The notes under the pieces: generated by a model
Told to the model about the DNA's origin: nothing
Seen by the model: the letters and a program-made list of their open reading frames with translations, nothing else
The model's database searches: none
Program-made: the position numbers and the translations under genes
Shown here: positions 21,804 to 22,251 of the stretch, one piece after another
Numbering within the stretch: the stretch's first letter is position 1
How the letters are laid out: the number at the start of each line of letters is the position of its first letter
DNA from: a virus
DNA length: 42,208 bases
Reading direction: 5' to 3' (one strand)
IMG/VR virus record: IMGVR_UViG_3300025018_000045
Span: 1 to 42,208 of that record

Positions 21804-21860
21804 CAGCAAAATATGCTGCACGAATATTATTCTTGATCAATCGGGGAGCGAGGCCTATAA

Positions 21861-21890
21861 ATGCAAAACCCCGCCGGGTTAGGGCGGGGT
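21861..21890 (-). terminator. Intrinsic terminator (minus strand)
   Basis: ACCCCGCC-ctaaccc-GGCGGGGT followed by TTTGCATTT on the minus strand. Confidence 0.7.
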
Positions 21891-22251
21891 GCAAATGGGT
21901 CCGGTTAAGTGAAGTCGGCGGCGGACCCGGCCACAGGGTTGTGGTATCTGTATACCGTTGGGCGCAGGCGATTACAATCCCCACTCCGAAAGACCGAAGG
22001 GGGCCTGCCGTTATCCGATCAGGGGTGACGAGAACGTGCGGTCGAGTGTTGGCGCTGATCACGACCAACGCGGACGGGTTGACGGGCGGCTCAGGCGGTC
22101 AAGACCAACTCGGCATAGGGGCTAACCTCGGATGCTGCGAAGCACGGGGCTTAGTACTCCTATGTCTGGATTTCAGGGCTCTCTAACGGTCATAACCCAG
22201 AAAACATAGAAATAACAAAGAAGATAGAGGGATTAGAATACACGCGAACGC
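21891..22251 (-). ncRNA. Candidate structured non-coding RNA, or a long structured 3' UTR of the repressor transcript
   Basis: No credible ORF in any frame. A series of perfect hairpins on the minus strand (22040..22066, 21964..22008, 21943..21956, 21931..21944, 21897..21928) ends at the terminator. It lies directly downstream of the repressor stop. Confidence 0.35.

Follow-up and report, generated by a model that had tools for sequence, protein, structure and literature searches.

In the temperate phages lambda, HK022 and P22, the genes rexAB, nun and sieB, which are accessory cargo expressed in the lysogen, share a slot between the repressor and PL: they lie in the orientation of the repressor, vary in presence, are replaced by other cargo in relatives, and are separated by a terminator from the early-left promoter PL. 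GOLLD and ROOL are large 'ornate' phage-associated RNAs of unknown function (PMC12286853). Phages P1, P7 and P4 encode RNAs in their immunity regions (c4 in P1 and P7, CI RNA in P4), which are produced in the lysogen. Here we describe an RNA found in the IMG/VR virus record IMGVR_UViG_3300025018_000045, analyzed over its full length of 42,208 nucleotides (nt; hereafter, the window), a temperate phage genome of ~42 kb. Window positions 22197-21859 on the minus strand are a non-coding RNA gene of ~340 nt, read in the direction of the repressor gene behind which it lies. It represents a previously undescribed, complex-folded RNA family in temperate-phage immunity regions, which resembles the rexAB, nun and sieB cargo by position and GOLLD and ROOL by complexity, and is a member of none of these groups.

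A prediction made from the letters of the window alone (the original prediction) had singled out the sequence behind the repressor as the largest non-coding stretch, had read it as a structured, terminator-capped RNA in the repressor direction within a rexAB-like cargo slot, and had proposed an Rfam/Infernal scan and a covariation analysis as checks. The gene-free stretch from the repressor to the next leftward gene measures 557 nt and is indeed the largest in the window; the runner-up (11737-12166) adjoins the integrase gene. As far as the TTGCAC hexamer (21798-21803), taken as the -35 element of PL, the distance is 448 nt, in agreement with the ~450 bp originally given. Both checks were carried out: no known Rfam family explains the region, and the helices covary in an RNA that is conserved in more than 20 loci, as detailed below.

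A protein collection contained 66 homologs of the window repressor, and on several of their contigs the repressor gene is followed by a gap of 416-641 nt without genes. The gaps of three of them (L001, L003 and L056) were 86-90% identical to the window over the alignment, and a metagenome scan added a homolog with 76% identity (L069). Using two conserved words, we retrieved further copies from IMG/VR: 14 full-length and two end-truncated ones with CATAGGAGNACTAAGCCCC, and six more full-length ones with CCCTTCGNNNNTTCGGAGTGGG. The family now has at least 21 distinct full-length members, 66-90% identical, on viral and metagenomic contigs. A covariance model (R1) built from the core of the RNA scored full-length members at 141-190 bits, including 188.8 bits for the window (21893-22071), and the two copies truncated by contig ends at 56 bits; beyond the known members, it found nothing else convincing in ~0.9 Mb of fetched loci. 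Searching GenBank phages and PLSDB plasmids with the RNA gave no match, and a repressor-based scan of IMG/VR found nothing. Two exact-pattern scans yielded one chance match (L010) and none, respectively, and a 19-mer match (L142) was also due to chance and is not a family member. We infer that the hosts of the phages carrying the RNA are Alphaproteobacteria. One 54.5-kb metagenomic contig stops within the terminator loop of its RNA (L001:4737-4741), probably because assembly broke off at a point of strain divergence in the variable promoter region.

Folding of the single sequence was uninformative, with z scores against shuffles of -0.48 for the minus strand and -1.59 for the plus strand, and the relevance of individual stems therefore had to be decided by comparison of homologs. 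Six nested and four crossing helices were evaluated on 16 core sequences aligned with MAFFT alone, without fitting to structure. Base pairing was possible in 90.2% of the cells, compared with 76.0% in shuffled alignments and 36-47% when the partner strand was slid. Changes on both sides were found in 35 of 57 pairs (20.8 in shuffled alignments, at most 16 with slid partners) and in 140 cells (41.7 in shuffled alignments). The observed covariation score and counts were reached by 0 of 500 shuffles. Each of the tertiary helices was supported by three to four compensatory pairs. In the 5' domain, which consists of the nearly invariant P2 and P3, 90.5% of the cells were paired, and eight pairs were compensatory. 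These results support a predicted fold of nine local helices and a terminator hairpin, locked by a kissing loop and by the pairings PK1, Px and PK2. G-U pairs were conserved at alignment positions 78-89 (16 of 16 sequences) and 58-72 (14 sequences); on the opposite strand they would be A-C, indicating that the minus strand of the window is the one that is transcribed and functional.

The individual helices (Table 1) vary in the manner expected of paired strands. In P2, 92% of the cells are paired, pair 57-75 switches from C-G to U-A, and the helix at the tip covaries (UGCU/AGCA, CCAU/AUG, GCG/CGC). The outer helix of P3 occurs as GUUG/CAAC, GUGA/UCAC or CGAU/AUCG. Six of the seven pairs of P4 have changed on both sides, with 93.8% of the cells paired. 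P6 has compensatory changes in four of six pairs, with up to four pair types per position, and encloses the invariant P7. The tertiary contacts behave in the same way: the kissing loop between P4 and P5 is found as AUCAG/CUGAU, ACCAG/CUGGU, GCUAG/CUAGC and CCCAG/CUGGG, and PK1, with four of five pairs compensatory and 98.8% of the cells paired, as GACCG/CGGUC, GUCCG/CGGAC, GCUCA/UGAGC, GAUCG/CGAUC and UCUCG/CGAGA. Similarly, Px takes the forms UUGUA/UACAG, UUGCCUA/UAGGCAG, UUCUAU/AUAGAA and UUCCAU/AUGGAA, and the middle pair of PK2 is C-G in seven sequences and U-A in nine, while adjacent positions show additional A-U and U-A changes. The intrinsic terminator is present in all homologs whose 3' end is covered by sequence.

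The five stems listed in the original prediction are all literally present in the window, but the row of back-to-back hairpins envisaged there falls far short of the actual complexity, which includes a kissing loop and three pseudoknot-type pairings. GCAGGC/GCCTGC enclosing CCCC/GGGG corresponds to P6 with P7, and compensatory changes in P6 bear it out; CCACA/TGTGG and GGGTCCG/CGGACCC are P8 and P9, which are supported in the same way. Two other stems proved to be chance complementarities. In GGTCG/CGACC, GGUCG belongs to P4 and GACCG to PK1, and a mutation of the proposed partner in L140 is compensated in the P7 loop. In GGTAT/ATACC, the 3' arm is not conserved, and UAUACAG pairs with UUGUA in Px. 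The terminator holds: a scan placed it at 21868-21890 plus the U-run, and its stems covary across homologs. The AGCCCC direct repeat exists, but its two copies are the two strands of hairpin P2. The proposed promoter, TTGTTA and TATGAC with an 18-nt spacer, did not survive comparison, because TATGAC falls in a segment conserved near the 5' end of the RNA (YUGAC), and its counterparts in homologs do not resemble a -10 element. A long-range helix between segment a and CCAACGGU, suggested by RNAalifold from five sequences, was rejected as well: its 3' strand covaries with the P9 loop instead, and in L161 and L163 segment a reads UGCUCGG with the partner unchanged.

Two single-stranded motifs of 8-10 nt, 86-93 nt apart, carry identical lineage-specific substitutions in every member of the family. 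They read UGACCG in most members, UGAUCAG in L140, UGAACGA in L150, UUACCGA in L151, and UGCUCGG in L161 and L163. No further copy is found at the promoters of these loci. This covariation is parallel, not complementary, and suggests one external, lineage-specific reader of both sites. Among known elements, the pair is reminiscent of boxB in nutL and nutR of lambdoid phages, which are likewise short RNA motifs in two copies, identical within a phage and different between phages. The lambda boxB pair reflects one phage-specific RNA-binding protein, N. Unlike boxB, both copies here lie within one RNA upstream of PL and do not form hairpins, and we identified no counterpart of N; the likeness is one of analogy only.

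At most of the loci examined, a repressor-type gene precedes the RNA in the same orientation. The repressor is either a small XRE protein of ~110-130 amino acids (aa) or a cI/LexA-like protein of 200-300 aa with a helix-turn-helix (HTH) and an S24 domain. At most ~55 nt, without a terminator, separate the repressor stop from the start of the RNA in the window and most other loci. The terminator of the RNA is followed by the early-left genes, with promoter-like sequence between them where this was read (the window and L069). Within the repressor-side block, the RNA invariably comes last, ending at the terminator directly upstream of the early-left promoter. Extra cargo, when present, sits between repressor and RNA, as does the gene for a 72-aa membrane protein in L162. 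Four loci, L069 (735-959), L141, L154 and L160, have in this interval a convergent small open reading frame (ORF) with a twin-arginine-like signal (for example, MQKRRDFLRSVPAIALAASA). In L153, the usual place of the repressor is taken by a 141-aa ORF and a 167-aa ORF (1218-1643 and 1610-2113, positions in an oriented 4.8-kb extract and not locus coordinates), the latter without Pfam match; a terminator separates them from the RNA, and they may represent additional cargo. L069 likewise has a terminator in front of its RNA. Members with the convergent ORF or with an upstream terminator thus need a promoter of their own.

The RNA is much more constrained than its neighbors. Between the window and L003, identity is 87.5% in the RNA, compared with 75.6% in the repressor coding sequence (48.5% at third codon positions), 66.7% in the cro-like gene, 59% in the promoter/leader and 49% in the spacer (22198-22251). 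The operators also differ between members (ATACGTAT-like in the window, TGCATCnnATGCA in L069), and the RNA is therefore common to heteroimmune phages.

The RNA is nevertheless dispensable, as close relatives do without it. It is absent from L058 and from L057, whose repressor is 74% identical; only a short spacer, with a terminator in L057, precedes the early-left promoter there. The slot is also empty in L012 and L016. Near distant repressor homologs in alphaproteobacterial genomes (for example, Nitratireductor, Kaistia, Pseudolabrys, Martelella and Caulobacteraceae), it is empty or contains either genes on the reverse strand or genes for small proteins that are secreted or membrane-bound. 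The suggestion of a rexAB-like cargo slot is borne out by this variable site, which relatives leave empty or fill with proteins or other RNAs: as with rexAB, the occupant lies between the repressor and PL, is co-oriented with the repressor in the window and most loci, and is accessory among relatives. Unlike rexAB, nun and sieB, the cargo here is an RNA without an ORF, one that may be expressed in the lysogen and may confer exclusion.

Sister phages carry a second, unrelated structured RNA in the same slot (L009:3355-3615, L111:1512-1775, L063:1500-1745 and L135:1765-2005). Compensatory changes were found in 13 of 42 of its predicted pairs among the four sequences; it has no Rfam match and is not detected by R1. 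A third conserved gene-free element of ~500-640 nt occupies the slot in L005 (784-1425; identical in L006-L008), L064, L077 and L119, with 65-69% identity between groups. The elements of L004/L009 and L005 had been considered as homologs of the RNA on the strength of shared short motifs. R1 does not detect them, and they are separate elements.

No described RNA accounts for the family. A scan of the whole window with Rfam 15 (4227 models) gave nothing at the gathering threshold and, at E <= 10, two sub-threshold, terminator-driven matches (rnk_pseudo, 20.8 bits with a threshold of 55; anti-hemB, 18.7 bits with a threshold of 49.5); in 11 related loci there was no match at E <= 1. Full-text literature searches turned up no account of the RNA, although it may overlap with unnamed candidates in a catalogue of structured RNAs from IMG/VR (PMC10690425). 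ARAGORN found no transfer RNA (tRNA) or transfer-messenger RNA (tmRNA) gene in the window, including the two-piece alphaproteobacterial tmRNA, and no Rfam tmRNA model matched. Like GOLLD and ROOL, the RNA is borne by phages or prophages, is non-coding and has multiple helices with long-range tertiary pairings. It differs from them in matching no Rfam model in sequence or structure, in being fixed beside a repressor gene and not beside tRNA genes, and in its smaller size (~340 nt, against roughly 580-800 nt for GOLLD and ROOL).

Comparison with the phage immunity RNAs led to a similar outcome. The c4 RNA of P1 and P7 (~77 nt for c4) and the CI RNA of P4 are short antisense RNAs with complementary targets in the same phage, whereas the present RNA does not match the Rfam C4 model, and neither its flanks nor the window contained a target complementary to its conserved single-stranded motifs. 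Since it is shared by heteroimmune phages, it cannot set immunity specificity. With bacterial small RNAs derived from 3' untranslated regions (UTRs), it has in common its place at the 3' end of an mRNA, the shared intrinsic terminator and a possible release by processing; it differs in being several times longer, almost fully structured and pseudoknotted, with no evident conserved single-stranded seed except the repeat motifs. The put and EAR elements of processive antitermination, put being that of HK022, lie downstream of the promoter of their own operon, whereas this RNA precedes the early-left promoter and ends at a terminator of its own.

We favor, at slightly better than even confidence, the reading that the family is a new type of ~340-nt folded RNA gene that is expressed in the lysogen and serves as trans-acting accessory cargo. 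The lysogen would produce the RNA by transcription that runs on from the repressor promoter, from a promoter of the RNA itself, or both. It would act in trans by its three-dimensional fold and not by a linear antisense seed, and is probably a scaffold for an external partner that contacts it through the two identical single-stranded 8-nt motifs. Its terminator would also insulate the early-left operon from lysogenic transcription. We count it in support of action in trans on a common target that members adjoin heteroimmune repressors with different operators. Because the slot is the one that holds rexAB in lambda, a function conferred by the prophage seems the most plausible: by this analogy, the accessory, lysogen-side cargo may exclude other phages or tune the lysis-lysogeny circuit or the host.

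Several points weigh against this reading. No consistent -35/-10 pair of a sigma-70 promoter was found upstream of the RNA, and a scan of roughly two dozen window ORFs revealed no reverse transcriptase, Cas or similar RNA-related protein. A complement of the repeat motifs was sought in the RNA, in 10-14 kb of flanks and in the 42-kb window, and none was found. The argument for a putative role in defense or exclusion is solely one from position, by analogy. In most loci the RNA adjoins the repressor stop, which is compatible with a 3' UTR that possibly acts purely in cis. The shuffled control leaves phylogenetic signal in; the slid-partner control, which removes it, is equally clear.

A narrower proposal, which we regard as tentative, is that the RNA is a prophage accessory device made of RNA only, serving exclusion or defense or the control of lysis and lysogeny, in which the twin motifs recognize a lineage-specific partner and the invariant core is the effector or scaffold. 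The partner may be a nucleic acid or a protein dimer from phage or host.

Among the competing explanations, an unlikely but serious one is that the RNA is a cis-acting 3' UTR of the repressor mRNA, which stabilizes or processes the transcript and insulates the early-left promoter, without function in trans. The short, terminator-free distance from the repressor stop, the shared orientation and the terminator at every covered 3' end all fit. However, a plain terminator suffices in a relative that lacks the RNA (L057), and elsewhere the RNA is separated from the repressor by the convergent ORF (L069, L141, L154 and L160) or by a terminator (L069 and L153). This uncoupling in some loci, together with the relatives with a bare terminator, weakens an explanation in cis only. 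Moreover, the RNA is conserved beside unrelated repressor types, and four tertiary pairings with invariant loops exceed the needs of a stabilizer.

It is improbable that the RNA is a riboswitch-like sensor, in which a large aptamer would control its own terminator, so that a signal lets lysogenic transcription enter the early-left genes and brings about induction independently of the repressor. A complex fold like a ligand pocket, invariant junction nucleotides, and a terminator that follows immediately, with the early-left operon directly downstream, speak for such a sensor. By contrast, the linker between P9 and the terminator stem varies from 6 to 9 nt, the terminator sequences vary freely, and by eye in the alignments we saw no conserved alternative pairing or antiterminator overlap, no explicit antiterminator search having been made. 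The downstream operon also has, as read from its sequence, its own operator-controlled promoter. That the terminator stands free and the promoter downstream is under separate control weakens the sensor explanation, and we know of no aptamer as long as 340 nt.

Catalysis, whether by a self-cleaving or self-processing ribozyme or by one that acts on another substrate, is also quite improbable. Phage genomes are rich in ribozymes, and the pseudoknotted core with its many invariant unpaired nucleotides recalls them, but there is no Rfam ribozyme match even at E <= 10, the core motifs of known classes were not recognized by eye, and nothing indicates a cleavage site. We consider it very improbable that selection acts on the DNA, as clustered binding sites for proteins (for example, distal operators), with the fold being incidental. 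The two direct repeats of 8-10 bp, which change in parallel between lineages at a distance of 86-93 bp, could be the sites; yet their spacing is unphased, the motif is missing from the promoters of the same loci, and compensatory changes preserve Watson-Crick and G-U pairs in 10 helices, which points to selection for the single-stranded fold of one strand. Finally, a decayed or unrecognized protein-coding gene can be dismissed, even though a 148-aa ORF overlaps the region (21622-22068, minus strand) and one metagenomic contig (L166) was given an ORF there by gene calling: as originally predicted, there is no credible ORF in the gap, for none of the reading frames stays open in all homologs, and of the 222 internal gap runs in their alignment 189 are 1-2 nt long and not multiples of three, which already refutes it; the gap ORFs tested have no Pfam match, variation is not of the third-position type, and conservation exceeds that of neighboring synonymous sites, the opposite of decay.

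Outside the RNA, the window has the gene content of a temperate phage (Table 1), and the same or a closely related repressor also occurs on contigs of 41.9-42.1 kb. The motifs of the putative early-left promoter resemble those of the divergent repressor/cro promoter region (22620-22670); a consensus promoter scan did not pick it up. The first gene of the early-left operon encodes a DUF7666 domain followed by ~17 tandem 9-residue units (GYQGAASAT), which Pfam scores as collagen-like. A gene for a C-5 cytosine DNA methyltransferase lies at 25764-26516 in the early-right operon. The 430 nt at 11737-12166, without a convincing long ORF and adjoining the tyrosine integrase gene, are likely the attP region. 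An attP site or host-gene fragment was rejected as an explanation of the RNA region, as the integrase gene and this separate gap are 9 kb distant and no tRNA or tmRNA is present.

Table 1. Features of the RNA and of the surrounding window (window coordinates; RNA elements listed 5' to 3')
Feature	Position	Strand	Remarks
AT-rich spacer, repressor stop to RNA	22198-22251	-	candidate promoter or processing region
Whole RNA gene, ~340 nt, from first conserved bases (GGUUAUGAC) through terminator U-run	21859-22197	-	conservation limits in 17-21 homologs
Segment a (UGACCGUUAGAGAG), single-stranded repeat motif copy 1	22179-22192	-	
P2, long irregular hairpin (CAUAGGAG-CUAA-CCCC-tip-GAGG-UUAG-CCCCUAUG)	22114-22164	-	nearly invariant, tip variable
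P3, hairpin, outer helix GUUG/CAAC	22078-22109	-	~22-nt loop with invariant GAGCCG
Repeat motif copy 2 (UUGACCGCCUGAG)	22090-22102	-	in P3 loop
P4, hairpin (GUUGGUC/GCGCCAAC)	22048-22069	-	loop AUCAG (22055-22059) kisses P5 loop
PK1, 5' strand GACCG	22039-22043	-	pairs with P7 loop CGGUC (21992-21996)
P5, hairpin	22009-22030	-	loop CUGAU (22018-22022) kisses P4 loop; 5/6 pairs compensatory
P6, GCAGGC/GCCUGC	21964-22008	-	encloses P7 (21979-22002) and Px 5' strand UUGUA (21973-21977)
PK2, 5' strand CAACGG	21955-21960	-	pairs with P9 loop
Px, 3' strand UACAG	21948-21952	-	Px crosses P6
P8, hairpin CCACA/UGUGG	21931-21944	-	variants CUGCUU/AAGCAG, GUCGU/ACGAC, CCGUG/CACGG
P9, hairpin GGGUCCG/CGGACCC	21897-21928	-	loop has PK2 3' strand CCGCCG (21916-21921); 5/6 pairs compensatory
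Intrinsic terminator (ACCCCGCC-loop-GGCGGGGU and U-run)	21859-21890	-	scan; covarying stems
Putative early-left promoter (TTGCAC and TATACT, 16 nt apart) and operator-like repeats	21776-21803	-	read from sequence; downstream of terminator
Next leftward gene, ATG at 21694	20735-21694	-	Pfam DUF7666 and collagen-like repeats
XRE-family repressor, immediately upstream of RNA	22252-22614	-	Pfam HTH_3/HTH_31
cro-like HTH gene, divergent from repressor	22672-22899	+	
Tyrosine integrase	12167-13246	-	
RecT	15859-16986	-	
DnaB-type helicase	26995-28455	+	

With this family, one more RNA joins the short list of large bacterial and phage RNAs with complex folds, of which RNase P, group I and II introns, OLE, GOLLD, ROOL and the omega RNAs each led to new biochemistry. 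Its position is informative, since it lies within the lysogeny module, beside several unrelated types of repressor, in the slot that holds exclusion genes in model phages. Parallel covariation, as seen for its two internal motifs, is rarely encountered and predicts a specific and discoverable partner. The presence of a second, unrelated RNA in the same slot suggests that RNA cargo in phage immunity regions may be common and may have been overlooked.

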